A stretch of DNA of 64,000 nucleotides from Candidatus Levyibacteriota bacterium (GCA_963716145.1 OY970292.1:268104-332103); one strand, 5' to 3'; counted from the stretch's first letter, positions 1,985-49,422 are shown. Numbers and translations: made by a program. The notes: generated from the sequence alone by a model not told the origin.

Positions 1985-4957
1985 TTAGCTACCTGATACT
2001 AAAGACGCGTATGCTGGCTGAGTGATAGACACACTCTTAATGTTGTTGTCTATCAGCGCATGAAATTCCGATGCGCTTTTGTCCCAGTTGAAGTTTTTTG
2101 ACCACACTAGAGCATTTTTAGAAAGTAAATCTCTGTACTCATTATCTGTAATTAATTTCTTCATAGCTCTACTTAATTGTTCAATATTTTTTGGGTCAAC
2201 TAGTAAGCCTGTTTCTCCATCAATCACTGAGTCTATTAAACCGTTAACGCGGGATGCAATTACAGGCGTTCCATTTGCGTTGGCTTCTATGACTGTAATG
2301 CCCCATCCTTCAATTTGTGATGGCTGAACAACTACCCAGCTTTCCTTTAGCATAAGATTTTTTTGTTCTTCAGTAGCTTTGCCAACAAATGTGACGTTGT
2401 TCTCAAGCTTTAATTTAGACACCAATTTTTTAAGCTTAAGATAGCTTTCACCGGTCCCGATAATCGAAAGGGTGGCATTTTGATGGTCCGTAAGGACTCT
2501 TGCGAATGCTTTGATTGCAATATCTATGTTTTTATAATTTTTGAGTCTACCCAAATATAGAAAAGAAGGAGTGACTGTTTTTACGACTTGAGCATTGCTA
2601 TAACTATACACACCGTTAGAAACAATCTCTATATTTTCTGCAGCAGTAAATCCTATTTTAATTATCTCACGTTTGGATGATTCTGAAACTGTAATTATTT
2701 TTTTATTTTTGTAAACAATAGGCATAAGTTTTCCCTCTAAATATGCGGCTGTTTGAAGGAAGGGAAAGTGCAAAAACTCCCTAAATATTTCCTGATGCAC
2801 GTGATGAATTAAAAGTATCACAGGAATCCTTGAGTATAGAGGTGAGAAAAAGGGAATTCCATTTTCGCAATCTATAATCAGGTCAACTTTTTTCCTAAAA
2901 ATGAACATATAGTATAAAAAGGCAAAAAGATAAACCGTATATGTTCCGCCTCTTCTTATAATCTCAACCCCGTCCACCTTTTCATTTAATAGACTTTTGT
3001 TGTCATTTCCGCAAAAGACCGTTACCCGGCTTCCGGTTTTAACCCACCTTTTAGCAAGCTCATGTATATAAACCTCAGCACCTCCTGCGTAAATATGTCC
3101 CGTGTCACGCCAATTAAAAATTAAAATATGATTAAGTCTGTTCTGACTCTTTTCAGGGAAGTGCGTAGTAAGTAAATTGTAGATACTTAGAACGTTCATT
3201 TTCATACTTACAACTACTGAATTGAGACCGGTTACAATCAATTGAAGAACAGGATGAAACGTCATCGTTCCATCAAGTGCGTACTTTTTGTATTTGTTTG
3301 CTAAATGGAGGCCATGGGTAGTTTTTTCCCAATAATGAGGTTTTGCTATGAGCTGATATAAAGCAATTACTCCCGCCCAGCTCATCAATGCCCAGTAAAA
3401 GGGTATGAAAAAAACATATTTCATTAAGTCCCATTCTTTTTTTCTACCACAGGCGATCATATAGTAATAAACAAACAAAAAATTTCCAAAAATCCATGAG
3501 AATACAGCAATATAAGAAATAGGCGGGGTGTAAACTGTTTCAAGAAGCGGACCAGCGAAAGCATAGGAAGTAAAATAAAGTATGGTAATTATCCACATTA
3601 ACGGGTTTATCAGTACAAACAAAATTTTTCCACCTACAGTAAGCTGGAAAACTATATAGTGAAGTATGCCTTTTTCGTCAATAAAGTCCTTATAATTTCT
3701 TGTGTGTACCAAGTACGTCTGCATGTATCCTTTTAGCCATCTGGATCGCTGCCGTACCCAATTCTTTATTCCGCTCGTTGCTTCTTCTAACGTTGTTGAT
3801 TCAATAACAGCTGTTCGAAACCCTTTTTGAAAAAGTCTAACTCCTAAGTCAGCGTCTTCTGTAACGTTAAAAGGGTCCCATCCCTGAAGGGATTTTAGTC
3901 TTTCTGTTTTAAAATGATTACTAGTTCCACCGAGCGGGAGACTGGAGCTAAATGACTGTAATCCGGTAAGCATTATGTCAAACCACAGCGCGTACTCTAC
4001 TGTAAAAAAGCGTGTTAAGTAGTTTGCTCTCGAGTTATAATAATTAAGCTTTGCTTGAAGACACTGAACATCTTCAGGCACTGTCTGAAAACCAAGATAA
4101 GCCTTTTTAAGCTGCAAAGGGTCAGGAATATCTTCAGCATCATAAACCACTAAATATTCACCAACAGCCAAGTTTAATCCGTAATTACAGGCTTTTGGCT
4201 TGGTTTTGGGAAGAGAAGGAGGGACTATAATTTTCCTAATGTAGGAAGGTAGTATCAATTTATCAAGTATTTTAATTGTTTCTTTATCATCTTCCTCCAG
4301 AAGAAGCAGAACGTCCAATTTTTCTTTTGGGTAATCAAGATTGTTTATAGCTTCTAAGAATTGAGGAAAAATATGCGCTTCTTTATAAAGTGGGCATAAA
4401 ACCGAATAAATCGGGAGTTTTGATTCGTCAATCGATGCCAAATCAGAATTGCTAAATGCCAATTCTCTAGGGCGCTGCATGCTGCTGTATACAACAGCAA
4501 AATTGAAAATAACATCCGCAAAATAGAGAATGCTAACAATTGCGGCAACAAGCTTCAGCGTCAAAATTGGGGAGACTACTAGGCCCAAAACTATAGTAAT
4601 CGCGATCCCTCCAATTGCAGCTTTTTGGATTAGACTAAATGTTTTGGCAGCAGAAAGTGAAAATGGAAGCGTGGTATGGGTGATATATTGTTGCGTGTTG
4701 TAGACAATTCCAGCTCCTGTCATGGAGGAAGCAAATTCAGGAAGTATTGCAGTCACTTGTGGCTTTGAATCTAATTTACCAAGAATTATTGCTGCATAAT
4801 TGCCATACAACTCTCTTAACTTCTCAATTATTGTTAGAAAGTTTTCAGCAGTATTTGCTATCTCAGATCTTAGTGAAGAAATAACACTTCCTTCTGTTCG
4901 TGAGAAATCAACTATAACAACTGCGTTGTTTAGGTCAAAAGACCGTATTATGCTCAT
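1985..4957 (-). CDS. large membrane glycosyltransferase: processive GT2 (QxxRW) fused to C-terminal GT4 domain
   Basis: 990 aa. N-terminal TM segments followed by a GT2 core (DAEDIPDP, TEDADLG, QRSRW), more TM helices, then a GT4 domain (EGWGITVIEANANGTPVIASRVNGL...GETGLLV). Confidence 0.8.
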   Translation of the reverse strand: MSIIRSFDLNNAVVIVDFSRTEGSVISSLRSEIANTAENFLTIIEKLRELYGNYAAIILGKLDSKPQVTAILPEFASSMTGAGIVYNTQQYITHTTLPFSLSAAKTFSLIQKAAIGGIAITIVLGLVVSPILTLKLVAAIVSILYFADVIFNFAVVYSSMQRPRELAFSNSDLASIDESKLPIYSVLCPLYKEAHIFPQFLEAINNLDYPKEKLDVLLLLEEDDKETIKILDKLILPSYIRKIIVPPSLPKTKPKACNYGLNLAVGEYLVVYDAEDIPDPLQLKKAYLGFQTVPEDVQCLQAKLNYYNSRANYLTRFFTVEYALWFDIMLTGLQSFSSSLPLGGTSNHFKTERLKSLQGWDPFNVTEDADLGVRLFQKGFRTAVIESTTLEEATSGIKNWVRQRSRWLKGYMQTYLVHTRNYKDFIDEKGILHYIVFQLTVGGKILFVLINPLMWIITILYFTSYAFAGPLLETVYTPPISYIAVFSWIFGNFLFVYYYMIACGRKKEWDLMKYVFFIPFYWALMSWAGVIALYQLIAKPHYWEKTTHGLHLANKYKKYALDGTMTFHPVLQLIVTGLNSVVVSMKMNVLSIYNLLTTHFPEKSQNRLNHILIFNWRDTGHIYAGGAEVYIHELAKRWVKTGSRVTVFCGNDNKSLLNEKVDGVEIIRRGGTYTVYLFAFLYYMFIFRKKVDLIIDCENGIPFFSPLYSRIPVILLIHHVHQEIFREFLHFPFLQTAAYLEGKLMPIVYKNKKIITVSESSKREIIKIGFTAAENIEIVSNGVYSYSNAQVVKTVTPSFLYLGRLKNYKNIDIAIKAFARVLTDHQNATLSIIGTGESYLKLKKLVSKLKLENNVTFVGKATEEQKNLMLKESWVVVQPSQIEGWGITVIEANANGTPVIASRVNGLIDSVIDGETGLLVDPKNIEQLSRAMKKLITDNEYRDLLSKNALVWSKNFNWDKSASEFHALIDNNIKSVSITQPAYASLVSGS

Positions 4958-9002: not shown

Positions 9003-9124
9003 AACAAAAAAGTTAATGGGCAGAGTTTGGGGCAGTTAGTTTTTGGAGTATATTATAAAATTTCCTATTTGTCAACATCCAATTTAAGTTATATAATAAA
9101 AAGCATAATTGATTTTTACTCTGT

Positions 9125-9562
9125 ATGAAAAAACTTCTACAAAAATATAATCACAATATTCCATATGTCACACTTGTCTTAACAATTGTATCCACCCTGG
9201 CTAGCCTTTATTTTAGTGAGGTTTTGCACCTTATTCCGTGTGTTCTTTGCTGGTATCAAAGGATCGCGATGTATTCCATGGTTCCCGTTATAACAGTTGG
9301 AATCCTGTTAAAAGATAAAAATCTTCCCCTCTATATTTTACCCCTGAGCATAATTGGGTGGGGGATTGCGCTTTATCACAATCTATTGTATTACCATTTT
9401 CTGCCGGAAAGTATTGCACCATGTACTGCAGGTGTGTCCTGCACAAACCGATTTTTTCAAATCTTTGGATTTATTGATATTCCGCTAGGATCATTTATCG
9501 CCTTTACATTAATTAACATTTGTATGATAATATATCTTAAGAATTTAAAAATTAAAAAATAA
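9125..9562 (+). CDS. bdbC: disulfide bond formation protein B (DsbB/BdbC family)
   Basis: 145 aa with four TM segments. IPCVLCWYQR motif and a second Cys pair (CTAGVSC). Strong similarity to Bacillus BdbC. Confidence 0.7.
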   Translation: MKKLLQKYNHNIPYVTLVLTIVSTLASLYFSEVLHLIPCVLCWYQRIAMYSMVPVITVGILLKDKNLPLYILPLSIIGWGIALYHNLLYYHFLPESIAPCTAGVSCTNRFFQIFGFIDIPLGSFIAFTLINICMIIYLKNLKIKK

Positions 9563-39737: not shown

Positions 39738-40421
39738 ATGGCAAGCAAAGTTTCAAAAAAGCGAATAATTAGAAATCACCTTGAAGCAGTTACCAATATT
39801 GGTGACTCAACCGGTATTGCAAAAGGTGTGGGAAAGTCTTTAATAGATGACTTGGCGTTGGATGGTGGAAAAGACTTCCTCAGCTTCCTCGGGATGGATA
39901 CCGGATCTGACAAAAAAAATTCTGCACACGAAGCTTCTTCTGAAGATCAAAAACATGACGCAGACGGATCAATTGATATAGTCAATTTCAAAACCAAATC
40001 CTTTGAGAAAAAAGCCAGACATATAGAACAGCGTGTTGAGGCTGCTATTGATTATCACCGTGACATTGTCAGATCTTCCGAAAGAGCATCAAGCCAGGAA
40101 TTGCAAGTAAGACAAAGTCAGATTCAGCAACTTAGAATGGAGATACAATCCCTTGTAAGCTCAACCAAAATGCTGCAAATGGAATTTGCACAGATTACAA
40201 CTGAGCAATCAGTCGCAAGCGTAGGAGCATATCATGAGCACTTCTTTGAATGGATAATAAAACAGGTTAAGGCGGCACGCGAAAACGTAGAAAATTCAAG
40301 TTCGTGCATGAACATACAGAAAAATAAAGCCGGCAAAAAAGGCTATTGGGGAATGTTCAAAAAACACGGCACAAGCTTCGCCATGTCAAACGAGCGCGGT
40401 GTAGCAACCCAGGTCGGATAA
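39738..40421 (+). CDS. hypothetical protein
   Basis: 227 aa, no recognisable family. Confidence 0.4.
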   Translation: MASKVSKKRIIRNHLEAVTNIGDSTGIAKGVGKSLIDDLALDGGKDFLSFLGMDTGSDKKNSAHEASSEDQKHDADGSIDIVNFKTKSFEKKARHIEQRVEAAIDYHRDIVRSSERASSQELQVRQSQIQQLRMEIQSLVSSTKMLQMEFAQITTEQSVASVGAYHEHFFEWIIKQVKAARENVENSSSCMNIQKNKAGKKGYWGMFKKHGTSFAMSNERGVATQVG

Positions 40422-40460
40422 ACGCTTGACTCGTCAACAAAAGTTTGATATTATCAATTT

Positions 40461-40508
40461 ATGAAATCACAAATTGCATTCACATTGGCACTTCTCCTTA
40501 CCCGATAG
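40461..40508 (+). CDS. putative Leu-rich leader peptide MKSQIAFTLALLLTR
   Basis: 15 codons. Four Leu codons within LALLL (TTG GCA CTT CTC CTT). The stop lies inside hairpin 1:2 of the downstream attenuator. Confidence 0.5.
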   Translation: MKSQIAFTLALLLTR

Positions 40509-40559
40509 GGCGGGAGAAGTCGTTGTGTTGAAAATCCCGCCAACTGAGCGGGTTTTTTT
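40490..40559 (+). promoter_or_regulatory. transcription attenuator (alternative 1:2 / 2:3 / 3:4 hairpins + U7 terminator)
   Basis: Segment 1 ACTTCTCC (40490-97) pairs with GGAGAAGT (40513-20). Segment 2 GGCGGGA (40509-15) pairs with TCCCGCC (40535-41). Terminator CCCGC-caactga-GCGGG + TTTTTTT (40536-40559). The three structures are mutually exclusive. Confidence 0.6.
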
Positions 40560-40597
40560 GTGGTTTTAGGATTAAAAATCAAAAGGAGGTAAAAATT

Positions 40598-41377
40598 ATG
40601 GGAGTTAGACAAGAAACAAACGAAAGAGGAGAAAGATTTAGAATCAAGGAAGGAGACCATACATGGCGCAGATTTGCTGCAAAAGCCATAAATGATTTGA
40701 GTCCTGATTCAGTCACTGTTAAGCGAGGAGAAAAAGGACAGCTTAGAATTGCGCACGCAGACAATAATCCTTTTGGAGCCTTTGTGCGTACAGCATATTA
40801 CCTTGATATTTCGTTGGAGGGTATTTATCCGGGTACTGGCGAGGAAGGAAGGGGATTTAACCGTGAGAGAGAGGCAGTAGTTAAAAAAATATTAGCACCA
40901 ATTTTCCGTGAGCATAGGACAAATGCAAATGAGCCTGGTAATCAAAGGGTAACGTGGCCTGATCCACAACACAATACATGGGAAAGTTTTGCAGCAACCG
41001 TAGTGAATGAAAAATATCCAAGATCAGTAACATTAACAGGGGAAAGACAATTTGGTCAATTGGGAGTCTTTGCCGCGCCAGATAGCCCATACAGGCTATT
41101 TGAAAGGACAGCGAGGTATACAGCTTCCTCGCTGGAAGATGTTATTCCAGATGCAGATAAACGTGTTGCCACAACGCAAGCCATATTAAGACCCATTTTT
41201 TCAACTCATATGGAGAAGCAAGAGGCTGAAAAAACAACGGAAATTGGCGGCGTAGTATATAGGAGAGTTACGGTCAGACCAGCAAGAGGCGCGGATTCGA
41301 TTAGGAGGGAATTGAGAATTAAACCAAAAGTGGGTAGAACAAGAGTAGAATATGTAGGAAACGGAAGAATAAGATAA
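40598..41377 (+). CDS. hypothetical Arg/Glu-rich protein with internal ~90-aa duplication
   Basis: 259 aa. Strong SD AAAGGAGGT 8 nt upstream. Repeat units end ILAPIFREH / ILRPIFSTH. GC-rich and compositionally atypical. Confidence 0.5.
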   Translation: MGVRQETNERGERFRIKEGDHTWRRFAAKAINDLSPDSVTVKRGEKGQLRIAHADNNPFGAFVRTAYYLDISLEGIYPGTGEEGRGFNREREAVVKKILAPIFREHRTNANEPGNQRVTWPDPQHNTWESFAATVVNEKYPRSVTLTGERQFGQLGVFAAPDSPYRLFERTARYTASSLEDVIPDADKRVATTQAILRPIFSTHMEKQEAEKTTEIGGVVYRRVTVRPARGADSIRRELRIKPKVGRTRVEYVGNGRIR

Positions 41378-41387
41378 ATCAATTAAT

Positions 41388-41435
41388 ATGAAAAAAGTAA
41401 TTTACAGTTTGGTAGTACTCCTCATAGCCCCTTAA
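41388..41435 (+). CDS. putative branched-chain (Val/Leu/Ile)-rich leader peptide MKKVIYSLVVLLIAP
   Basis: 15 codons, 8 of them Val/Ile/Leu. Followed by nested hairpin TGGATT..CACCC-gccaacag-GGGTG..AATCCA + T6 (41455-41498). Confidence 0.5.
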   Translation: MKKVIYSLVVLLIAP

Positions 41436-41540
41436 CGGCGGGGGTACGACGTAGTGGATTGAATCACCCGCCAACAGGGTGGGAAGAATCCATTTTTTGC
41501 AAATTGACATTCCCTAGGCCGATTTGCTATCATTCAATTA

Positions 41541-41585
41541 ATGGTAGCGCAAAAATTTATTATTGAGATTATTATTGCTCCTTAG
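41541..41585 (+). CDS. putative Ile-rich leader peptide MVAQKFIIEIIIAP
   Basis: 14 codons, five ATT Ile codons in IIEIII. The stop TAG sits in the CTCC-ttag-GGAG hairpin. Promoter-like TTGACA-18-TATCAT at 41504-41533 upstream. Confidence 0.55.
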   Translation: MVAQKFIIEIIIAP

Positions 41586-41610
41586 GGAGGGTTTCTAGGC
41601 ACGCGCTTTG

Positions 41611-41634
41611 AACCTCCCCAACGGGAGTTTTTTT
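41611..41634 (+). terminator. attenuator terminator CCTCCC-caac-GGGAG + T7
   Basis: The 5' arm is complementary to GGGAGGG (41586-41592) immediately after the leader stop, giving an antiterminator alternative. Confidence 0.6.
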
Positions 41635-41747
41635 GTATACAAAAATTATTTATAAATAGTATACAATCCGCCAAGAGTGCTCCTTGAGCCGTGTTCGAAT
41701 AGAACTGAAAAGGCGAAAGGTAAACGACGGCGGATGTGAATTTAAAT

Positions 41748-43015
41748 ATGGACAAAGTAACAGTCAAAACAATAGACGAGGCGGAAAAAGTGCTTGAAAA
41801 TGTGATACGCAAAACGCCGCTTCAGTATAACAAACGGCTTTCCGATTTATATGGGCCAAAATATACTTTAAACGCGAAGATCTGCAAGATGTCCGCTCAT
41901 ACAAAATAAGAGGCGCGTACAACCTGATGAATAGCCTAACGGCAAAAGAAAAATCAAAAGGCGTTGTGACAGCCAGCGCGGGAAACCATGCGCAGGGAGT
42001 AGCGATGAGTGCATATATTCTCAAGATAAAAGCTACAATTTTTATGCCTGTAATCACACCTCTTCAAAAAATTAATAAAGTAAAACATTTTGGAAAAGAA
42101 TGGATAACAGTAAAACTTGTGGGGCAGGTGTATGATGATGCCTCTAATGCTGCGCATCAGTATTGCGAAGAAAACAAACAAACATATGTTCACCCTTTCA
42201 ATGATCCGCGCACCATATCAGGGCAAGGGACAGTCGGAAAAGAGATTTTGGAACAACTGGAAGAAAAAAGCCTGCCAACCAAAGGAAAAGTTGATTTTGT
42301 TTTTTGCCCGATTGGCGGAGGCGGACTCATATCAGGAGCTGGCACTTACATCAAAACAAAATTCCCAGATGCAAAAATCATTGGAGTTGAGCCAAAAGGT
42401 GCTCCCGCAATGCTTGAGGCCTTCAAACAGAAAAAAGTAGTGACCCTCAAAAAGATAGACACTTTTGTCGACGGTGCAGCAATAACGACTGTTGGAGAAT
42501 TGAGCTTCAAGATTGCCTCAAAAGTCACTGACAAAATCGTGGTGAGCGATGAAGGGAAAGTCTGTGTAACTATGGTTGATCTTTACCAAAACGAGGGAAT
42601 AATCGCAGAACCCGCCGGAGCATTATCGATTTCAGCACTGGACGAATTTGCTAAAGAAATTAAAGGAAAAACTATAGTTTGTGTCTTGAGTGGGGGAAAT
42701 AATGATATTCTGCGTTATCCTGAGATAATGGAAAAGAGTCTGGTTTATAAAGGCTTGAAGCACTATTTTCTGATTGAGTTCGCTCAAAAACCCGGACAAT
42801 TAAGACAATTCCTCAATCACGCCCTGGGTCCGAGAGATGATATAGTTTTATTTGAATACATAAAAAGAAACTCCAGAGAAAAAGGACCGGCACTTATCGG
42901 GGTTGAGCTGAGTAAAAAAGAAGATCTTTCTCTTCTTCTTGACAACATGGACAAATTGCAGATACGCTATACAAAGATCACAGCAGACGACCCTCTTTAC
43001 GGGTTTGTGCTCTAA
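41748..43015 (+). CDS. ilvA: threonine dehydratase (threonine ammonia-lyase) with C-terminal regulatory domain, split by a frameshift in this assembly
   Basis: PLP motif SYKIRGAY, ASAGNHAQGVA, GGGGL. The N-terminal 53 codons are in another frame. Adding one A to the A4 run at 41858-41861 gives ...LSDLYGPKIYFKREDLQDVRSYKIRGAY... Confidence 0.85.
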
Positions 43016-43027
43016 TATTACTTCTAT

Positions 43028-43405
43028 ATGAAAATTATAAAAACAGATAATGCCCCAGCAGCAGTTGGCCCATATTCACAAGCAATTATAAGCAATGGTT
43101 TTGTTTTTTGCTCAGGTCAAATAGGACTAGATCCCAAAACAGGAGAGTTAAAGGGAGCGGATATAATTTCTCAGACAACTCAAATAATTTTTAATCTAAA
43201 ATCAGTGCTTGAGCAAGCAGGAAGTTCGCTGCAAAACGTTGTTAAAACTACTTGCTATCTAACTGATATTTCAGATTTCCAGAAATTCAATGATATTTAC
43301 GCAAAGCACTTCATATCCTCTCCTGCGCGGGCAACAGTTGAGGTATCTCATCTCCCAAAAGATGCTATAGTTGAGATCGAAGCGATCGCCGAAATCAATT
43401 CATGA
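43028..43405 (+). CDS. ridA: RidA/YjgF family enamine/imine deaminase
   Basis: 125 aa. DNAPAAVGPYSQAI...VKTTCYL...PARATVEV signature. The classic ilvA-ridA pairing. Confidence 0.9.
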   Translation: MKIIKTDNAPAAVGPYSQAIISNGFVFCSGQIGLDPKTGELKGADIISQTTQIIFNLKSVLEQAGSSLQNVVKTTCYLTDISDFQKFNDIYAKHFISSPARATVEVSHLPKDAIVEIEAIAEINS

Positions 43406-44484
43406 TCAATCAAGATAGACTGGTACAAACCTTCCTCGATCTGGTAAAGATAGACAGCCCCTCAGGTGATGAAAAAGAAATATCAAAATTTGTTGCGAAA
43501 AAATTAAAAAATTTAGGCGGAAAAGTTGTATTTGATAATTATGGAAACCTAATTGCGAAATTTGGAGGAATAGGCGAGTCCTTTATGCTCAACAGTCACT
43601 TGGATACCGTTGAGCCGGGACGCGGAATAAAACCAAAAATTCTAGGAGACAAAATAGTCTCATATGGAACGACAATACTTGGCGGGGACGCGAAAGCTGG
43701 CGTCGCGGTTATACTTGAAACGCTTGAATCGCTAAAAGAAGATCGTAGAAAGCCTGTCCCCATTGAAGTTGTACTTACGCTGGAGGAGGAGATAGGCTTG
43801 AAGGGGGCAGTAAATCTTGATTACTCCAAAATCCATTCAAAAATAGGAGTAACATTTGACGGAGATAAATCAGGCGTTGAAAATATTACTGTCTCAGCTC
43901 CGGGATATAACACAGTTGATGTTGAAATTATCGGTTGGGCTGCGCACGCCGGTTCTGAACCGGAGAAAGGAATTTCCGCAATTAAAATCGCCGCCGAAAT
44001 CATAACCCATCTTGAAGTTGGAAGGATTGATCAAGAAACTACTGCCAATGTCGGGTTGATTGAAGGAGGTAGCGCGCGAAACACAGTCCCTGAGAATGTG
44101 CATTTTAAAGCTGAGATAAGAAGCCGCAGTCTTACAAAACTTGAAAAGCATTCCATACATTTTGAACAGGTTTTCAAAATGGTTTCAGCAAAATATCCTG
44201 CAGCTAAAATTAAGTTGAATATTCAACGGGAATTTGATCCATACTTTTTTGTGGAAACTCAAGACGTGATACAGCAAATTAGCAAAGCGCTTAAAAAGAT
44301 TGGGCTGAAACCAAAACTGGGATCAGCAGGCGGGTCATCTGATGTTAATATCTTTTACGCACACGGAATAGAAGCAGTATGCGTGGGTGGCATGTATTAC
44401 AATCCGCACACAACAAGGGAATATGTTAAAATTTCAGATTTGGTAAATGGAGCCCGATTTTGCGAAGAATTGGTCCTAAATTAG
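43402..44484 (+). CDS. M20 family peptidase (peptidase T-like)
   Basis: 360 aa. HLDTV, GGDAKAG and EEEIGLKGA metal-binding motifs of M20B/PepT. Confidence 0.8.
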   Translation: MINQDRLVQTFLDLVKIDSPSGDEKEISKFVAKKLKNLGGKVVFDNYGNLIAKFGGIGESFMLNSHLDTVEPGRGIKPKILGDKIVSYGTTILGGDAKAGVAVILETLESLKEDRRKPVPIEVVLTLEEEIGLKGAVNLDYSKIHSKIGVTFDGDKSGVENITVSAPGYNTVDVEIIGWAAHAGSEPEKGISAIKIAAEIITHLEVGRIDQETTANVGLIEGGSARNTVPENVHFKAEIRSRSLTKLEKHSIHFEQVFKMVSAKYPAAKIKLNIQREFDPYFFVETQDVIQQISKALKKIGLKPKLGSAGGSSDVNIFYAHGIEAVCVGGMYYNPHTTREYVKISDLVNGARFCEELVLN

Positions 44485-44592
44485 ATTCTGTGGGCCCACG
44501 AGGAGTCGAACCTCGGTCCACCCCTGTCTCGCTTCGCTCGCAGGCGAACTCGACCTAAAGGTCTGCGTTCCTTTGCAATGTCAATGTAATTG

Positions 44593-44666
44593 TGGATCTA
44601 AGTGGATTCGAACCGCTGACCTCTTCAATGTCAATGAAGCGCTCTAACCAACTGAGCTATAGATCC
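44593..44666 (-). tRNA. tRNA-Val(GAC)
   Basis: GGATCTA-TA-GCTC-AGTTGGTTA-GAGC-G-CTTCA-TTGACAT-TGAAG-AGGTC-AGCGG-TTCGAAT-CCACT-TAGATCC-A, with one C:A mismatch in the T-stem. Confidence 0.85.
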
Positions 44667-44861
44667 AATTGCAACAAATAATTAACCAGCTGCCTGCCCC
44701 GTTATTCGCTCTTGCGATGCGAGGATGAAAACCTCGAGAGCAAGTAAGAATTTACGGGGAGCTATGAACCCTCTAATCCTCTCATTCTAACAAAATTTTG
44801 CCTTGAAAACAATCAACTCAGCACGCTTGACAGGCCTTTCTTCACCTCTTATACTATTTCT

Positions 44862-45092
44862 GTGGAGCAGCCTTACGAAAGATCAAGTCTCAAACTGTCC
44901 AAAAAACAAATTATCGTAAATAATTTTATTGGCGGGCTTTTTTGGGCGCTCGGAGCAACTGTGGGACTTGCGTTTATATTTACCCTCCTCAGCCTAATAA
45001 CAAAAAATATAAATCTCGTTCCCTATGTCGGATCATTTGTCTCTCAAATAATTGATTTCGTAATTTCACATAACCCCAATCTTCAAAAGTAA
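44862..45092 (+). CDS. small membrane protein
   Basis: 76 aa with one or two TM helices. Confidence 0.4.
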   Translation: MEQPYERSSLKLSKKQIIVNNFIGGLFWALGATVGLAFIFTLLSLITKNINLVPYVGSFVSQIIDFVISHNPNLQK

Positions 45093-45136
45093 CTCCTATC
45101 TTTATATAAAACAATAATTCGGTTATAATCCAAAGT

Positions 45137-46355
45137 ATGGATAAAAATCAAATTAAAAGCCACCAGCAAATTAGCCAGGAGCAGGATCTGTATGTTATGT
45201 CTGAGCTTGTTGGCTCAGGCCTGCCACTATTGACACCCAAAGGGACTGTCCTTAGAAGAACTCTTCAAGCATACATAGATAATTTGTTGGAAAAACAGGG
45301 ATACCAATTTGTAACGATTCCGCACATCGCGCGAAAAACACTTTACGAAAAATCCGGACATTTAGAAAAATTTTCCGAGGATATGTTTCCGGTTATGAAG
45401 ACAAAGGACCGCGAATATATGCTCAAACCGGCAAACTGCCCCCATCATATAGAAATTTTCGCCAGAAAACCACATTCTTACCGCGAGATGCCTCAGCGTT
45501 ACGCTGAAAGCACCACGCAATACCGATCCGAGCAGTCAGGAGAACTTGAGGGGCTCGCAAGAGTCCTGGCTTTAACACTTGATGATTCCCATGTTTTTGC
45601 CACACTTGATCAAATAAAAGATGAATTTAGAAGAGCGTTGAATATCAATAAGCAAATGCTTGAGGATTTTAAATTGAATTACTGGATTAGACTATCAGCA
45701 TGGGATCCAAAAAAGAAGACAAGGTACCTGGGTGATGAGAAGGTATGGGAGGAGATGCAGAATTTAATGGAACAGATTCTCAAGGATTCTAAAATTAATT
45801 ATAAAAAGGTTGAGGGCGAAGCCGCTTTTTACGACCAAAATGGATCTTATTACAACAGACTCAAACGGAAAAGAATGGCAGGTGTCAACAATTCAGGTGG
45901 ACTTCAATTTACCTGAAAGATTTAACATATCGTATATTGACGCAGACGGAAAAGAAAAAAGGCCTATCATGCTTCACAGGGCAACTTTTGGATCATATGA
46001 GCGTTTCCTGGCAATGATTATTGAACATTTTCAAGGTGCATTTCCCACTTGGCTTGCGCCTGTTCAGATGACGCTTCTACCAATTGCCGATAGACATATT
46101 GAATTTGCTGAGCAAGTGAATAAACAACTACTAGATGCGGGGTTCCGCTCAGAGGTTGATACGCGCTCTGAACGGCTTCAGGCCAAAATCCGAGATGCTG
46201 CTTTACAAAAAGTACCATTTATGGGTATAATAGGGGATAAAGAAATTGATACCAAAGAGGTATCTGTTAGAATGCGCGGGGGAGAAGACTTAGGTTCCCT
46301 TACAAACGAATCCCTAATTAATAAGTTACAAGAAAACATTGATAAGAAAATATAA
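45137..46355 (+). CDS. thrS: threonyl-tRNA synthetase (catalytic core + anticodon-binding domain; no N-terminal TGS/editing domains), split by a frameshift in this assembly
   Basis: Class II motifs (YMLKPANCPHH, FRRALN). The second ORF continues ...QVDFNLPERF...HRATFGSYERF...PTWLAPVQ. Frames join at the T5 run 45826-45830. Confidence 0.85.
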
Positions 46356-46905
46356 GCCAACTCAAAAGAAAATATATAGACTTAATCAGCGTATTTTCGC
46401 GTCGCCCTTGAGAGTACTGGACGCGGAAGGAAAATTGATTGGGGTACTAACAAAGTTTGAAGCACTGAAGCTTGCCCAGGAGCAGGAATTGGATTTGGTC
46501 GAAATTGCGCCAAAGGCACAGCCCCCGGTTGCAAAAATAGTAGATTTTAACAAATTTCTTTACCAACAGGAAAAAAAGAAAAAAGAGGAAAAGAAAAAAG
46601 CAAAAGTGAGTGAGACCAAGGAGCTAAGACTTGGTCCTTTTATGTCTGAGCATGATTTGCAAGTGGTAATTAGAAGAGGACGCGAATTCCTGGAAGAAGG
46701 ACACAAATTAAGATTGGTCTTAAAATTCAGAGGAAGACAAATCGTTCATCCTGAATTTGGACACAAGACAATTGGAAAACTGGTTGAATCATTAAAAGAT
46801 ATATCAAAAATAGATAGGGAGGCACATTTTGAAGGAAAACAATTAGTAGCACTTCTCTCAGCTGAGAAGGGAAAGAAAAAAGATGAAAACAAAACAGAAA
46901 GTTAG
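46339..46905 (+). CDS. infC: translation initiation factor IF-3
   Basis: 188 aa. INQRI...VRVID N-domain and C-domain. Lys-rich linker. Canonical position after thrS. Confidence 0.9.
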   Translation: MIRKYKPTQKKIYRLNQRIFASPLRVLDAEGKLIGVLTKFEALKLAQEQELDLVEIAPKAQPPVAKIVDFNKFLYQQEKKKKEEKKKAKVSETKELRLGPFMSEHDLQVVIRRGREFLEEGHKLRLVLKFRGRQIVHPEFGHKTIGKLVESLKDISKIDREAHFEGKQLVALLSAEKGKKKDENKTES

Positions 46906-47083
46906 AGGATCTGTCAGTAAAAGATTTAAAGTGACCAAAACAGGCAAAGTAAAATTTGCCCATCAATTTGGCAGCCACAAAAAGCTGCATAAGTCCAAGT
47001 CCAGAATTAGGCGTCAAAAAGAACCGGGAACGCTAACAGGCGCATTTGCAAAGAAGGTAAAACAGATGTTGGCAGTAGCCTAG
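46883..47083 (+). CDS. rpmI: 50S ribosomal protein L35
   Basis: 66 aa, basic. [10 protein letters not shown] motif. Confidence 0.9.
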
Positions 47084-47093
47084 AAAGGAAATT

Positions 47094-47444
47094 ATGGCAA
47101 GAATTAAAAGAGGAGTTGTATCAAAAAGAAAACATAATAAATTACTGGATCTGACCAAAGGCTTCAGGGGTACAAAAAGCACCCTGATCCGGGAAGCAAA
47201 AGCAGCCAGTCTTCACGCGGGTCAATACGCGTACAATGGGCGCAAGGAGAGAAAAAGCGACTTCCGCTCCCTTTGGATCATAAGGATAGGCGAGGCTGTC
47301 AAACAATACGGGCTTTCTTACAGTGTTTTTATCAATAAATTGAAAAAAGCCAATATTGAACTTGATAGAAAAATTTTAAGCAGCTTGGTGGTTGAGGATC
47401 CGGAAGCATTCAAACACGTCGTTAACTTAGCCAAAAAAATATAA
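47094..47444 (+). CDS. rplT: 50S ribosomal protein L20
   Basis: 116 aa. [17 protein letters not shown]-terminus. Confidence 0.95.
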
Positions 47445-47445
47445 T

Positions 47446-47541
47446 ATGATTAACTCAGTGAAAAACTTACAATTAAATTGGTATTACTTTTACTTTACTT
47501 CTCGCAAAAGCGGGAGGTTGAGTTATGGTTTAAATAACTAA
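47446..47541 (+). CDS. putative aromatic (Trp/Tyr/Phe)-rich leader peptide MINSVKNLQLNWYYFYFTSRKSGRLSYGLNN
   Basis: 31 codons. TGG TAT TAC TTT TAC TTT run at 47479-47496. Begins 2 nt after the rplT stop. Confidence 0.5.
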   Translation: MINSVKNLQLNWYYFYFTSRKSGRLSYGLNN

Positions 47542-47588
47542 AAAGAAATAAACCAAAACCCAATACCTCCCAAACGGGAGGTTTTTTT
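47501..47588 (+). promoter_or_regulatory. attenuator: hairpin CTCGC-aaaa-GCGGG, antiterminator GGGAGGT/ACCTCCC, terminator ACCTCCC-aaac-GGGAGGT + T7
   Basis: GGGAGG occurs at 47512-17 and 47576-82, and CCTCCC at 47566-71. Terminator U-run at 47582-47588. Confidence 0.55.
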
Positions 47589-47604
47589 ATGGGAAAAATA
47601 AAAT

Positions 47605-47976
47605 ATGAGAACACAAGAACTACAGCGCGACAGAATAGAAATATGGGAAAGAAGAAAATCTGCAAAACCCAGTGGCAAGGATGTTGTTACGGCTATGATA
47701 TTCCCGCTGCCATGGGGCGCTGGTGTTCATCAGTTTGAATCCCCTGCCGGGACAATAACCGTTGATATGAGCTTTGGAAGAATAAATCCGGCAAATGAAA
47801 CTCAACAAGTCGTCGTAAAAGGACCTCGGAGTGGCGGGACGATTGTAATGGATCTTATAAATGGAAAGGGAAGAGCAATGCCTAGCCCTGGTGTTGAAGT
47901 GGTTTTTGACGCGTCCCGGCTTACAAGCGCGTTGGATGCGGACAATATGCGCTCAAAATCTAGGCGAGGCTGGTAG
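47605..47976 (+). CDS. hypothetical 123-aa protein under aromatic-leader control
   Basis: No family recognised (…TITVDMSFGRINPANETQQVVVKGPRSGGTIVMDLINGKGR…). Moderately GC-rich. Confidence 0.45.
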   Translation: MRTQELQRDRIEIWERRKSAKPSGKDVVTAMIFPLPWGAGVHQFESPAGTITVDMSFGRINPANETQQVVVKGPRSGGTIVMDLINGKGRAMPSPGVEVVFDASRLTSALDADNMRSKSRRGW

Positions 47977-47991
47977 TCAAATATATTTTTG

Positions 47992-48020
47992 TTGACTAGC
48001 ATAAAAAAGTCTGATATACT
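47992..48020 (+). promoter_or_regulatory. sigma70 promoter TTGACT-17-TATACT
   Basis: TTGACT at 47992-47997 and TATACT at 48015-48020. The leader ATG is 8 nt downstream. Confidence 0.6.
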
Positions 48021-48027
48021 ATATCCA

Positions 48028-48084
48028 GATGAAGAATCTTATTAAAACAAACGCATTTTACTTTACCTTCGCTAAGCGGGGGTA
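48028..48084 (+). CDS. putative Phe/Tyr-rich leader peptide MKNLIKTNAFYFTFAKRG
   Basis: 18 codons. TTT TAC TTT ACC TTC at 48055-48069. The stop TAG (48082-84) lies inside segment 2 of the attenuator. Confidence 0.6.
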
Positions 48085-48133
48085 GGTTTTTGCGTAAAAA
48101 CAAAAATGCACCTCCGGAAACGGAGGTTTTTTT
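48058..48133 (+). promoter_or_regulatory. Phe attenuator (1:2 TACCTTCG/CGGGGGTA; 2:3 CGGGGGT/ACCTCCG; 3:4 terminator ACCTCCG-gaaa-CGGAGGT + T7)
   Basis: Mutually exclusive pairings verified by hand. U-run at 48127-48133 immediately before ATGGAAAAAATATG. Confidence 0.6.
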
Positions 48134-48144
48134 ATGGAAAAAAT

Positions 48145-49422
48145 ATGGTAAGAATAGATACATTGAGAGGAAAAGACAACCTAAGAGATCCGGAAGTACA
48201 ACCAGTGTCAACAATTGCGTACCTTAGTCCAAATGGGAATTTCACGCACGTTGCTGCTTTGGAACTACAGCGGAAACAAAGCGCATATGAAGGAGCGCTG
48301 CTCATGGGCATACCATCAATAGATGGTATGTTTGAAGCGGTTGTGTCGGGCGGAGCATCATATGCACTAGTTCCAGTTGAAAATTCAACAGATGGAGCTG
48401 TGCCTAAAACGCATAAAAATTTATATGAACGGGAGGGATTACAAATCGTTGGAGAATTCGTATTGCCAATATCGCAAACCCTTTATTATCAAAATATCGA
48501 TATGGTTAGAATTGTAGCATCCAAAGATTCGGCTCTTGGGCAGTGCAGGAAAAACATCAAACGCTTGAACGATGAAATAAATAAAAAAAGAGTAAAAGAA
48601 GGAAAAGAAAAAATTATTCTACGGCTAGAAACCATGGAAAGCACGGGCGCTGCAGTTGCTGAAGCCGCGATAAAACCCTGGATTGCAGCATTGGGAAGTT
48701 CCATTTCCGCTGAGGCACAAAAAATTACAAATCTTCATAAAGAAGATGATTTTAACGATAGGGAATCTAACGCAACTACATTTGCGCTGGTTCAGCTTGC
48801 GAGAGAGCTGCCTCCTCCGACTGGAAATGACAAAACCACATTTACAATGACAATTCCTGACACGCAAGGATCGCTTGTGCATGCTCTTGATGTCCTTGCG
48901 AGAAACAACGTTGATCTGAACAAAATCAAATCAATCGGTAAGGAGAGTGGGACTGTTACATTCTTAATGTCTGCCGACGGCCATTTACAAGATGGTATCA
49001 TGCAGGAAGCACTTATCGCATTGGAAACAGATCCTGAAAGAGACATTAAGGTAAAAAGACTAGGTTCATATGCCAAAGATGATTATACTCCGGAGGAGAG
49101 TGAAGAAACATATGATTTTGAGGCAGCCATTGAAAGAATTGATAAAGAAGCAGGGAATGGTGAAGCAATGGATGAAAATAAAATGATTGCAATCTTCACG
49201 CTAAAAGACCACCCCGGAGCACTAAGAGATGCTTTAAGACCATTTGCTAACGCAGGGGTGAATCTTACGAAAATTGACTCACAGCCAAGCGGCATACATA
49301 ATGAGCACATCTTTTATGTAGCTTTTGATAAAACTACTAAAAACCAAGAAGCTCTATTGGATGAATTAAAGAGACAATCTCATTTTCATAAGGTAATTCC
49401 CGGCGGGGGAAAGAAAAAATAA
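48145..49422 (+). CDS. pheA: prephenate dehydratase with tandem ACT-like regulatory region
   Basis: PDT domain (TIAYLSPNGNFTHVAALE, ESTGAA, NATTFALV) and ACT (PGALRDALRPFANAGVNLTKIDSQPS). Start set at 48145, because the ORF-track start 48106 would translate the terminator hairpin. Confidence 0.8.
   Translation: MVRIDTLRGKDNLRDPEVQPVSTIAYLSPNGNFTHVAALELQRKQSAYEGALLMGIPSIDGMFEAVVSGGASYALVPVENSTDGAVPKTHKNLYEREGLQIVGEFVLPISQTLYYQNIDMVRIVASKDSALGQCRKNIKRLNDEINKKRVKEGKEKIILRLETMESTGAAVAEAAIKPWIAALGSSISAEAQKITNLHKEDDFNDRESNATTFALVQLARELPPPTGNDKTTFTMTIPDTQGSLVHALDVLARNNVDLNKIKSIGKESGTVTFLMSADGHLQDGIMQEALIALETDPERDIKVKRLGSYAKDDYTPEESEETYDFEAAIERIDKEAGNGEAMDENKMIAIFTLKDHPGALRDALRPFANAGVNLTKIDSQPSGIHNEHIFYVAFDKTTKNQEALLDELKRQSHFHKVIPGGGKKK

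Follow-up and report, generated by a model that had tools for sequence, protein, structure and literature searches.

Probable leader-peptide transcription attenuators in a small Patescibacteria genome

The window analyzed here, a 64,000-nt stretch of DNA from the small genome of an uncultured Patescibacteria/CPR bacterium, contains three loci (units C, D, and E) that very probably are classical ribosome-mediated (leader-peptide) transcription attenuators. A preliminary description had already taken these loci for attenuators. Their anatomy and conservation, as well as the thermodynamic feasibility of the switch, were computed here and support C, D, and E as genuine units, with orthologues of the same specificity at the same positions in relatives. 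New are the phylum, the leaders being leaderless, and the possible dual use of the terminator 3' arm as a Shine-Dalgarno (SD) sequence, whereas the mechanism itself had been known before.

Results

Each unit possesses its own sigma-70-type promoter (Table 1), from which transcription would start either on the leader start codon or slightly 5' of it, by a few bases, with 6–8 nt between the -10 box and the start. The leader ORF comprises 14–27 codons, is SD-less, and carries a codon run of a single amino acid or group of amino acids near its end (Ile in C, Trp/Tyr/Phe in D, Phe in E, and Leu in A). Its last sense codons, which are C/U-rich, form segment 1, and the stop codon adjoins or falls within the G-rich segment 2. 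Segment 3 (C-rich), segment 4 (G-rich), and U7 follow in this order. The terminator stems (at 40536, 41614, 47565, and 48110) consist of 5–7 bp with 4–5 GC pairs, followed by U7.

Two more copies, absent from the preliminary description, are located just upstream of the three: a strong Leu attenuator (unit A, 40426-40559) and a weaker, possible branched-chain one (unit B, 41388-41498). The main role of unit B may be termination of the upstream unit.

Table 1. Positions of the attenuator features in the window (all on the + strand)
Feature	Position	Details
Promoter A	40426-40454	TTGACT-17-TATTAT; -10 box ends 6 nt 5' of leader ATG
Leader ORF A	40461-40508	MKSQIAFTLALLLTR, stop; 4 Leu in 15 codons; Leu codons CTT CTC CTT; orthologues in L001, L003, L005, L006, L092, L095
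RNA switch A	40493-40559	segment 1, 40493-40504
Segment 2, A	40508-40516	GGGCGGGAG
Segment 3, A	40535-40542	TCCCGCCA
Terminator A	40536-40552	CCCGC-caactga-GCGGG; U7, 40553-40559
Target of A	40598-41377	259-aa protein; no Pfam match; own GGAGG SD; low Leu content (4.2%)
Candidate attenuator B	41388-41498	leader MKKVIYSLVVLLIAP, stop; segment 2 GGCGGGGGU; long hairpin 41453-41494, U6
Promoter C	41504-41533	TTGACA-18-TATCAT; -10 box ends 7 nt 5' of leader ATG
Leader ORF C	41541-41585	MVAQKFIIEIIIAP, stop; 5 Ile in 14 codons; orthologues in relatives
RNA switch C	41577-41634	stop codon between segments 1 and 2
Segment 1, C	41577-41581	GCUCC
Segment 2, C	41585-41593	GGGAGGG(UU)
Segment 3, C	41611-41617	AACCUCC
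Terminator C	41614-41627	CUCCC-caac-GGGAG; direct read: hairpin CCTCCCCAACGGGAG, 41613-41627, then T7 (U7), 41628-41634
Structured 5'-UTR RNA, attenuator C to ilvA	41662-41740	closing helix AUCCGCC/GGCGGAU; GAAUA-loop hairpin
Target of C	41748-43015	ilvA (threonine dehydratase); frameshift near 41853; then ridA, M20 peptidase
Promoter D	47422-47450	TTAACT-17-TATGAT, within rplT end; -10 box ends 7 nt 5' of GTG 47458
Leader ORF D	47458-47541	MKNLQLNWYYFYFTSRKSGRLSYGLNN, stop; GTG start; in-frame ATG 47446; read as (M)KNLQLNWYYFYFTS...; 7 aromatic residues in 27; aromatic codons (Trp/Tyr/Phe) 47479-47496
RNA switch D	47496-47588	segment 1 UACUUCUCGC, 47496-47505
Segment 2, D	47511-47519	CGGGAGGUU
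Segment 3, D	47564-47571	
Terminator D	47565-47582	ACCUCCC-aaac-GGGAGGU; direct read: hairpin ACCTCCCAAACGGGAGGT; T7 (U7) ends 47588
Junction 5' of D target start codon	47589-47604	AUGGGAAAAAUAAAAU; target without own SD
Target of D	47605-47976	123-aa protein; no Pfam match; orthologues only in L001, L005
Promoter E	47992-48020	TTGACT-17-TATACT; -10 box ends 8 nt 5' of leader ATG
Leader ORF E	48029-48085	MKNLIKTNAFYFTFAKRG, stop; Phe-rich run FYF.F
RNA switch E	48063-48133	segment 1 UUACCUUCGC, 48063-48072
Segment 2, E	48076-48084	GCGGGGGUA
Segment 3, E	48109-48116	CACCUCCG
Terminator E	48110-48127	ACCUCCG-gaaa-CGGAGGU; direct read: hairpin ACCTCCGGAAACGGAGGT; T7 (U7) ends 48133
Mini-ORF	48134-48151	AUG GAA AAA AUA UGG UAA; 7 nt past GGAGG; stop overlaps PDT start (48145)
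Target of E	48145-49422	prephenate dehydratase (PDT) + ACT protein, 425 aa; then pheS, pheT

Cognate targets are found in the window for unit C (ilvA) and for unit E (PDT-ACT and pheST). The window targets of A and D have no Pfam match, so that the case for their cognate regulation comes from relatives, in which the D slot holds genes matching the sensed amino acids (DAHP-synthase-like in L006, CM + PDH/PDT in L170). Indel errors are present in the window assembly, with frameshifts in ilvA, thrS, and pheT, which makes the exact leader ends uncertain, above all for E and D. As the Phe leaders of relatives end with ...FFFTFA before the stop, leader E of the window is probably short of one base, at GC[C]TAA.

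The attenuator classes are kept at the same positions in Patescibacteria (Microgenomatia-like) relatives. This holds for syntenic relatives with a PDT that is 53–85% identical, although not all units occur everywhere (L003 is without D), and attenuators are still present in more distant contigs with a PDT of 35–40% identity. Among syntenic relatives, the leader sequences differ, and with very few exceptions they sense an unchanged amino acid. Ile leaders such as MVGQTIIIGIINS were found in 4/5 cases, the exception being L005 (MKAKLFLNEISINS), which is not Ile-enriched; aromatic leaders end, for example, with ...WFYFYYTS and Leu leaders with ...SLLLNLA. Codon enrichment is characterized by P values of 1e-2 to 4e-5 for most leaders and is weaker for several Leu leaders (P 0.04–0.17) and for unit C of L005 (P 0.32). 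Both enrichment and specificity of the codon run are kept in about 40 copies. A good promoter (at least 9/12) ends 6–12 nt 5' of the leader start in 33/41 copies, and an SD before the leader start was found in none of the 41.

The stem class is tracked by the pairing of segment 2 with segment 3 (GGCGGGA/CCCGCC, CGGGAGGUU/ACCUCCC, GCGGAGGUU/ACCUCCG, ACGGGGA/GACCCCGU, and GCGGGGU/ACCCGC). Where the terminator stem differs between copies, the antiterminator segment differs along with it. The preliminary description had presented the recurring element as a shared RNA module. What recurs is an architecture and no fixed sequence: further attenuators that are built alike have CCCGCC/GCGGG (the class of unit A), CCCCG/CGGGG, or UCCCC/GGGGA stems.

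The three CCUCC/GGAG(G) hairpins with U7 described before at C, D, and E are indeed present far above chance. The pattern CCTCC-N3-8-GGAG occurs seven times on both strands of the window compared with 1.19 expected occurrences, a count that 0/100 shuffles reached, and one match (site 4714) lies outside loci C, D, and E. The same applies to the codon block common to the two phe units and to the GGAGG-U7-AUGG junction that follows the terminators of D and E. TTTTACTTTAC is found in exactly two copies (47488 and 48056; 0.08 expected), as is GGAGGTTTTTTTATGG (47577 and 48122; 0.04 expected).

From this anatomy, we infer how the units would respond to ribosome stalling. With charged tRNA plentiful, a ribosome at the stop codon would mask segment 2, so that helix 3:4 forms and transcription terminates at U7. 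Without translation, helices 1:2 and 3:4 would form, which would lead to termination, too. When the cognate charged tRNA is scarce, a ribosome stalled on the codon run would mask segment 1, and segment 2 could pair with the emerging segment 3. The terminator would then not form, and read-through would reach ilvA-ridA-M20 (C), the 123-aa ORF (D), or PDT-ACT with pheST (E).

The computed folds make such a switch feasible. The 2:3 duplexes range from -8 to -19 kcal/mol, with <2% of shuffles being as good for most copies, and units A, B, D, and E show 1:2 hairpins in their MFE folds. In ribosome-masking folds of A, C, and E, the terminator gives way to the antiterminator with the A site on most regulatory codons (exceptions without a switch are Leu-11 in A, Ile-12 in C, and Phe-14 in E), and the terminator forms again with the ribosome at the stop codon. 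The two states of unit D are iso-energetic (-22.1 versus -22.4 kcal/mol), and the antiterminator is not favored by thermodynamics alone; helix 2:3 forms first during transcription. Over 11 E-type sequences, helices 1:2, 2:3, and 3:4 are 90–93% paired. The helices are too conserved to yield significant covariation within a class, and it is the variation from class to class, together with a small number of variants, that provides support.

The preliminary description also suggested that one attenuator cassette had been duplicated and retargeted. For D and E, this part of the proposal has good support, and by their sequences the two are credibly old paralogues that have the codon block, segment 2, terminator, post-terminator junction, and leader start MKNL in common. 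When E-type orthologues were used to train a covariance model (noise ceiling ≤25 bits), the window's unit D scored 47 bits with an E value of about 1e-5. As D-type and E-type copies flank the PDT gene even in contigs with a PDT 35–40% identical to that of the window, any duplication must be ancient. For the Ile unit C, a common origin is unproven. The model did not detect this unit at an E value ≤10, other C-type copies score 24–34 bits, level with the noise ceiling or slightly higher, and C and A copies other than the window's C score 22–34 bits. It is an even question whether the likeness of C, D, and E results from convergent design constraints, leaving only D and E as true paralogues. Such constraints would be SD-like G-rich segments 2 and 4, C/U-rich segments 1 and 3 made of Thr/Ser/Pro/Ala codons, a tetraloop, and U7; the CCUCC/GGAGG look of the three units can be traced to segments 1 and 3 being anti-SD-like and segments 2 and 4 SD-like. 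Convergence is further favored by the same architecture occurring with unrelated stems (CCCGCC, CCCCG, and UCCCC) and by the orthologous E unit of L090, the stem of which is now ACCCGC/GCGGGU, indicating that stems drift freely. However, part order and similar lengths are common to all classes, which descent from one ancestor predicts likewise, and pairwise local alignment against 500 shuffles gave z=8.7 for C-D (D-E, z=9.5; C-E, z=3.3). The C-D similarity comprises essentially little beyond the short terminator.

Discussion

That the hairpins are the organism's standard intrinsic terminator, closing upstream genes behind small ORFs that arose by chance, is scarcely credible. The stem form is stereotyped between loci and genomes, no good promoter was found for unit B of the window, and one U7 hairpin (9123 in L172, 30 nt past the rplT stop) has no leader ORF. 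However, when the window was scanned in full with a terminator consensus, terminator-like sites were not in excess over shuffles, and all other gene ends in the window are without such a hairpin. The four perfect-U7 hairpins of the window (units C, D, and E, and 40536-40552 in unit A) all sit 3' of promoter-proximal leader ORFs with cognate codon runs, and a blind scan for a promoter and a short SD-less ORF with a T-run ∼40 nt past the stop returned exactly A, C, D, and E. Nearly all perfect-U7 hairpins in 304 kb of related DNA are likewise positioned 3' of a leader ORF, by which a generic terminator is already largely refuted, and relatives with a PDT only 35–85% identical have kept the leader ORFs along with their specificity and a complementary segment 2. 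It is also very improbable that a trans-acting factor (T-box-like tRNA binding, a TRAP-like protein, or a metabolite riboswitch) drives the switch in place of the translating ribosome. No direct evidence speaks for such a factor, although a distinct structured RNA, which is a separate element outside the attenuator, is located between attenuator C and ilvA. Rfam gave no T-box or metabolite riboswitch match, either in the whole window at gathering thresholds or in 40300-48600 at E values ≤10, and the leaders span no more than about 100 nt. Moreover, ∼40 divergent copies retain an ORF that begins close to the promoter, includes the codon run, and stops by segment 2, while its N-terminal codons vary freely.

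Less remote than these two, but still unlikely, is a mainly translational action, in which the hairpin hides a GGAGG SD that translation of the leader ORF opens, with termination being secondary. D- and E-type targets begin 10–18 nt past the U-tract without an own SD. Under transcription attenuation, too, freeing of the 3' arm (GGAGG) could therefore provide the targets of D and E with a ribosome-binding site, with U7 as the spacer. We infer that, in E, this role would run via the 5-codon mini-ORF, the stop of which overlaps the PDT start. The AUGG(A)AAAAAUAUG “linker”, which the preliminary description had counted as part of the RNA module, is no filler of such a module but the region in which translation of the downstream gene is initiated. 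Class A units possess a non-SD stem, and their targets bear their own GGAGGUGA SD. In L005, the target ORF of unit C itself begins at an AUG 7 nt past GGGAG. Unit E of L090 and L097 as well as L099 have an AUG there, too, but the ORF ends after 10–25 codons; in the window, L001, L005, and L006, the mini-ORF at that AUG ends on the PDT start codon. On the other hand, the perfect U7 right behind a GC-rich stem is invariant and typical of intrinsic termination. The start codon past U7 lacks conservation in many copies, among them D-type copies and distant E-type copies. An SD core is present in 4/51 ORFs, so that the genome is largely SD-independent, and a U-tract:A-tract hairpin, which could shorten the distance from SD to AUG, does not exceed shuffles in stability. 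A terminator 3' arm that doubles as SD, and with it the role of the mini-ORF, may thus be considered a weak idea, and transcription attenuation remains the preferred reading of the units.

The window units resemble the E. coli pheST leader (pheM), in which a Phe-codon-rich leader and an intrinsic terminator also lie directly 3' of rplT. The gene order is as in E. coli (thrS-infC-rpmI-rplT-leader (pheM)-...-pheS-pheT), and the stalled-ribosome logic would be common to both. RF01859 (Phe_leader) is the best Rfam match at both phe/aromatic units, with 36.3 bits (47462-47591) and 28 bits (48040-48133), below the gathering score of 55; E. coli pheM as positive control reached 75 bits. In the reverse search, the E-type model gave only 8.4 bits on E. 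coli pheM. In contrast to pheM, the window units are leaderless, two stand in tandem, and the 123-aa ORF and the PDT-ACT gene are regulated first, instead of pheS. On unit A, Leu_leader (RF00512) and Trp_leader (RF00513) stayed below their gathering scores (19.7 versus 50 bits and 22.9 versus 41 bits, respectively).

Similarly, the Phe-rich E. coli pheA leader (pheL, reviewed in PMC3082878) controls a prephenate dehydratase gene. The E. coli ilvGMEDA and ilvBN leaders are rich in Ile/branched-chain codons and act on an operon with ilvA, whereas the Ile leader here controls ilvA-ridA-peptidase only. No sequence relationship to the E. coli pheA, ilvGMEDA, or ilvBN leaders was detectable. Proteobacterial pheA and ilv leaders feature an SD and longer 5' regions. 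Deinococcus deserti has leaderless leader peptides (PMC4007540) and mycobacteria have poly-Cys attenuators (bioRxiv 10.1101/834739), in both of which the leader ORF is SD-less and located at the transcript 5' end. These belong to other phyla and have other sequences, and their starts were mapped by RNA-seq, whereas the starts proposed here derive from promoter-to-ATG spacing alone. A premature terminator together with a short ORF with an amino-acid run defines the same class of attenuators in Naville & Gautheret 2010 (PMC2965389), who added Firmicutes to the leader-peptide systems then known only in Proteobacteria and Actinobacteria. A literature search returned no report on attenuation in Patescibacteria/CPR.

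It is conceivable, albeit doubtful, that leaderless attenuators constitute essentially all strong intrinsic terminators of the clade and, jointly, have a dual-use 3' arm and control starvation effectors. If so, there would be one expandable attenuator family (Leu, Ile, branched-chain, Thr, Phe, and aromatic), and the 3' arm as ribosome-binding site of the next ORF would create a combined transcription/translation switch. Many copies would then control fast-evolving, small uncharacterised proteins that are poor in the sensed amino acid, possibly starvation-induced effectors of an episymbiont that needs host amino acids.

Further specificities were observed among relatives. Branched-chain leaders occur, and those of L171 and L172 resemble the leader of unit B. 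A Thr leader (KTTTS before the stop) is located 5' of a HAD hydrolase gene and thrS; by its N-terminal motif alone, the hydrolase is called SerB/ThrH-like.

Leader-Peptide Attenuators in the Window

The window carries the leader-peptide attenuators A (Leu), C (Ile), D (aromatic), and E (Phe), together with a fifth, weaker branched-chain unit, B. They are distributed over two blocks of genes, the first of which has the order tig, DUF5660, unit A, 259-aa ORF, units B and C, ilvA, ridA, M20 peptidase. In the later block, thrS, infC, rpmI, rplT, unit D, and a 123-aa ORF are followed by unit E, the prephenate dehydratase gene (PDT, with ACT domain), pheS, and pheT.

Coordinates of the attenuators and neighboring features in the window
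Feature	Position	Description
Unit A, hairpin	40536-40552	perfect U7 tail
Target of unit A	40598-41377	259-aa ORF
Unit B	41388-41498	leader MKKVIYSLVVLLIAP and stop, long hairpin, U6; directly before promoter of C
Unit C (Ile)	41541-41634	
Unit C, hairpin	41613-41627	CCTCCCCAACGGGAG, then T7
Structured 5'-UTR RNA	41662-41740 (+)	between unit C and ilvA
ilvA, frameshift	41853	
tRNA-like fragment	44485-44520 (-)	T-arm and acceptor 3' half (GGTTCGACTCCTCGTGGGCCCA)
thrS	45137	looks leaderless
thrS, frameshift	about 45800	
Unit D (aromatic)	47458-47588	
Unit D, hairpin	47565-47582	ACCTCCCAAACGGGAGGT, then T7
Target of unit D	47605-47976	123-aa ORF
Unit E (Phe)	48029-48133	
Unit E, hairpin	48110-48127	ACCTCCGGAAACGGAGGT, then T7
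Block upstream in D and E	47488; 48056	TTTTACTTTAC
GGAGG-U7-AUGG junction in D and E	47577; 48122	GGAGGTTTTTTTATGG
pheS	49443	looks leaderless
pheT, frameshift	about 51720	
tyrS	55817	looks leaderless

Reading of the sequence places the hairpins of C, D, and E exactly where the preliminary description had reported them, and the upstream block that it had ascribed to the two phe units and the GGAGG-U7-AUGG junction are found in D and E only. The motif CCTCC-N3-8-GGAG is present in 7 copies, with 1.19 expected and 0 of 100 shuffles reaching this count, and when the units are aligned locally and compared with shuffles, z is 9.5 for D-E, 8.7 for C-D, and 3.3 for C-E. A consensus scan of all 64 kb detects a perfect U7 tail on four hairpins only, those of C, D, and E and one that is absent from the preliminary description and forms part of unit A. 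This unit comprises, in order, a promoter (TTGACT-17-TATTAT), the leader MKSQIAFTLALLLTR starting 6 nt on, GGCGGGAG directly after the stop codon, and CCCGCC-loop-GCGGG-U7. When we scanned blindly for a promoter followed by a short ORF without Shine-Dalgarno (SD) sequence, A, C, D, and E were the sole candidates with a T-run ∼40 nt past the stop codon.

The recurrent hairpin might simply be a generic terminator of this organism, an alternative that the preliminary description had raised itself. A stricter scan of the window and 20 related loci, which required a perfect stem with three or more GC pairs and six or more T, contains one clear exception that would suit such a role, located 30 nt past rplT (L172 9123), and one ambiguous match (L097 3893). 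Nearly all strong-stem matches on the gene strand come after a leader ORF, and the consensus scan above shows no excess of terminator-like sites over shuffles, which together largely rule out, within the 304 kb covered, that the hairpin is a generic terminator.

Each of ilvA, thrS, and pheT is split by one frameshift, with intact orthologues in the related contig L001. The frameshifts are either assembly indel errors or signs of gene decay; therefore, single-base details of the leaders have to be read with caution, and leaders D and E carry single-base uncertainties. The thrS gene of the window is also short of about 178 N-terminal residues.

RNA Architecture and Switching

Every unit is organized in four segments that pair alternately as 1:2, 2:3 (antiterminator), and 3:4 (terminator). 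Segment 1 consists of the last sense codons (ACC UUC GCC in E, ACU UCC in D, GCU CC in C, and CUU CUC CUU ACC CG in A), followed by the stop codon inside or beside the 1:2 loop, a G-rich segment 2 (GCGGAGGUU, CGGGAGGUU, GGGAGGGUU, or GGGCGGGAG), and segments 3 and 4 as the terminator arms. CCUCC/GGAGG recurs because segment 1 resembles segment 3 and segment 2 resembles segment 4. In most of the ∼40 copies, the 2:3 duplex significantly surpasses duplexes with shuffled upstream sequence. Segment 2 tracks the class of the stem even in variants, as in L090-E (segment 2 GCGGGGU, stem ACCCGC/GCGGGU) and L090-D (segment 2 ACGGGGA, stem GACCCCGU/GCGGGGUU).

Helices 1:2 and 3:4 are present in the MFE folds of A, B, D, and E. 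With the ribosome modeled as a mask on the RNA that reaches 12 nt past the A-site codon, units A, C, and E change from terminator to antiterminator with most of the regulatory codons in the A site (no clean switch is seen at Leu-11 of A, Ile-12 of C, and Phe-14 of E) and revert to the terminator with the stop codon in the A site. For D, terminator and antiterminator are iso-energetic (-22.1 vs. -22.4 kcal/mol), and the antiterminator is the first to form, provided that segment 2 is free as segment 3 is transcribed. The helices 1:2, 2:3, and 3:4 are 90-93% paired among 11 E-type sequences, within which they are too invariant to give significant covariation.

Leaderless Leaders in an SD-Poor Genome

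A promoter of the form TTGACn-16-18-TAnnnT (at least 9/12) ends 6-12 nt, mostly 6-8 nt, ahead of the leader start in 33 of 41 copies, and an SD sequence precedes the leader ORF in 0 of 41. The promoter of window D, TTAACT-17-TATGAT, puts the leader start at GTG 47458; read from there, the leader begins with MKNLQLNW, matching MKNLIKTN of E, and the alignment of D to an E-type covariance model likewise begins at this position. The genome is nearly SD-less, with an SD core in 4 of 51 window ORFs of at least 150 aa, and thrS, pheS, and tyrS look leaderless. A separate leaderless promoter for pheS seems to lie within the end of the PDT gene. In several genes, a -10 box lies 6-7 nt ahead of the ATG, which suggests that leaderless mRNAs are widespread. 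Leaderless leader peptides are known from Deinococcus deserti (PMC4007540) and mycobacteria (bioRxiv 10.1101/834739).

Relationship of the Units and Conservation in Relatives

The preliminary description had interpreted C, D, and E as copies of one attenuator cassette that was duplicated and retargeted. We built a covariance model from 11 E-type orthologues and ran it on both strands of 304 kb. The E copies, which are the training set, score 58-111 bits; outside this set, a new Phe unit (L171 9381-9496) scores 55 bits, D-type copies 28-53 bits (window D 47 bits, E value about 1e-5), a Thr unit 40 bits, C-type copies 24-34 bits, and A-type copies 22-29 bits, with noise at up to 25 bits. Given the score of D, units D and E are credibly paralogous. 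In contigs whose PDT is 35-40% identical to that of the window, an E-like and a D-like unit flank the gene in the order E-PDT-D, indicating that the duplication is old. Unit C has the design and the short stem in common with D and E, but the model misses window C at E ≤ 10. The observation of a shared module is confirmed and its interpretation partly supported: duplication with retargeting is credible for D and E, and for C a common origin and convergence on the same design are about equally probable.

Syntenic loci were collected via PDT and PheS homologues. PDT is 85, 70, 57, and 53% identical to that of the window in these loci and 35-40% identical in more distant contigs; PheS relatives at 72-77% identity are labeled Patescibacteria or Candidatus Levybacteria, which assigns the window to a Microgenomatia-like CPR genome. 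A PDT-profile scan of the contigs of GTDB species representatives returned one close relative only. The compared loci carry attenuators at matching positions, although not all units everywhere (L003 is devoid of D and its gene). Leader sequences differ, whereas the amino acid sensed is nearly always conserved. Ile leaders include MVGQTIIIGIINS, MIKHSNIIAIIINS, MTEQSIIIKIIIAP, and MLIKKAQIIINIITP; Phe leaders end in AFFFTS, SFFFTFA, or FRFFFTFA or read MTHITNIFFAFFAFR; aromatic leaders contain WNYYYFTS or SFWFYFYFP or end in KWFYFYYTS; and Leu leaders end in SLNLLLTR or LSLLLNLA. An exception is the C-type leader of L005, MKAKLFLNEISINS, which is not enriched in Ile. Branched-chain leaders (LILNVVIVLL) also occur in relatives, as does a Thr leader (ending in KTTTS) upstream of a HAD hydrolase gene and thrS. 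The hydrolase matches generic HAD families only in Pfam; its N-terminal motif by itself would suggest a SerB/ThrH-like enzyme. A Thr attenuator is present upstream of thrS in L171 and was not found upstream of thrS in the window.

Comparison with Known Attenuators

The E. coli K-12 gene order is thrS-infC-rpmI-rplT-pheM-pheS-pheT, and D and E therefore sit where the pheM attenuator does. The Rfam Phe_leader model scores 75 bits on E. coli pheM and 36.3 and 28 bits on window units, with a gathering score of 55; all leader matches of the window units in Rfam are below threshold. Reciprocally, the E-type model reaches a non-significant 8.4 bits on E. coli pheM. The window units appear to operate like pheM, and membership in the pheM family is not demonstrable.

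In 2010, Naville and Gautheret described such systems as then known in Proteobacteria and Actinobacteria only and added Firmicutes (PMC2965389). Our literature search returned no report joining Patescibacteria with transcription attenuation, and publications in which "leader peptide" appears alongside "candidate phyla radiation," judged mainly by their titles, use the former in other senses. The units belong to a textbook class of regulators, in a phylum for which no earlier report was found in the literature searched. What goes beyond the textbook are the leaderless leaders across the clade, a possible dual use of terminator and SD, and the presence among the targets of unknown small proteins with a low content of the amino acid sensed. 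Leader-peptide attenuation requires that the ribosome closely trails RNA polymerase. The conserved attenuators are therefore sequence-level evidence of transcription-translation coupling in CPR/Patescibacteria, of which very few members are cultured. They also label genes that would be induced by shortage of Ile, Leu, Phe, aromatic amino acids, or Thr (among them ilvA, PDT/pheST, and several lineage-specific small proteins without known domain), opening a route to small-protein function and to the sensing of host supply by reduced-genome symbionts. As all current Rfam models stay below threshold on the ∼40 copies, these could serve as seeds of new RNA families.

Target Genes and the Junction after the U-Tract

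The 259-aa target of A has no Pfam match, and 10 attenuator-controlled ORFs of relatives are mostly matchless as well. A word-based search for homologues of the 123-aa target of D returned only the protein itself; orthologues were recognized via synteny in L001 and L005 only, and an AlphaFold model of the protein alone is unusable (pLDDT 41). We determined the composition of the targets of A and D together with that of targets from L001, L003, L005, L006, L089, L090, L092, L094, and L172. Unknown proteins after Leu leaders contain 0.9-5.6% Leu vs. 9.0% in the background, and those after aromatic leaders 0-5.7% Phe+Tyr+Trp vs. 7.4%, both from few and partly orthologous samples. Depletion in the sensed amino acid is compatible with synthesis of the targets under the corresponding starvation.

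In most D- and E-type units, the target starts 10-18 nt past the U-tract and lacks an SD of its own. In class A units, the stems are not SD-like, and five of seven targets start 23-47 nt downstream with their own SD, GGAGGUGA. The junctions hint that the freed 3' arm of the terminator may double as an SD, although we regard this as rather unlikely. In L005-C, an AUG 7 nt past GGGAG is the start of the target ORF itself. An AUG is also found there in L090-E, L097-E, and L099, where its ORF ends within 10-25 codons and the long ORF begins downstream, and in the E units of the window, L001, L005, and L006, where a mini-ORF of 4-5 codons ends at the start codon of PDT (AUGA or AUGGUAA). Conservation of the start codon past U7 does not extend to D-type or distant E-type copies. 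A hairpin between the U-tract and an A-tract, by which GGAGG would come to lie beside the target AUG, has -1 to -5 kcal/mol, no better than in shuffles, and was dropped.

Additional Elements near the Attenuators

The structured RNA between C and ilvA is closed by the helix AUCCGCC/GGCGGAU, contains the inner hairpin GUUC-GAAUA-GAAC (fold z -3.4), and is without an Rfam match. A search for further copies returned only L171 5362-5511, giving two in all; in this copy, the same core carries two additional stem-loops as insertions, and the hairpin is compensated (CUAC-GAAUA-GUAG; z -4.2). It lies behind the Thr-leader attenuator and ahead of the HAD hydrolase gene and thrS, so that the context is threonine-related in the window and L171 alike. 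The tRNA-like fragment adjoins tRNA-Val and occurs only once in the window; gene calling yields neither a tRNA nor a tmRNA at this site, and models of both kinds fail to fit. It may be the remnant of an integration site.

The same aromatic-leader attenuator precedes different genes in L091 (1508-1631) and L094 (1141-1264), encoding a protein whose N terminus, judged by eye, is like that of ribosomal protein L7/L12 and a 76-aa unknown protein, respectively; the two sequences part ways directly past the U-tract and SD. L172 contains a repeated module, AUCCCC-gnaa-GGGGAU-U7-AUGCYUGUCUCGCCG...GGAGGUGAA (4014-4090 and 9123-9196), upstream of two small ORFs of 72-76 aa, with the leader ORF missing from one copy. 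In this clade, the rplT-pheS interval is a hotspot of aromatic-pathway genes, holding a near-complete shikimate operon with CM, PDH/PDT, and an aminotransferase in one relative (L169 1-10000), CM and PDH/PDT in another (L170 8379-9982), and a DAHP-synthase-like gene in a third (L006 8922-9842).
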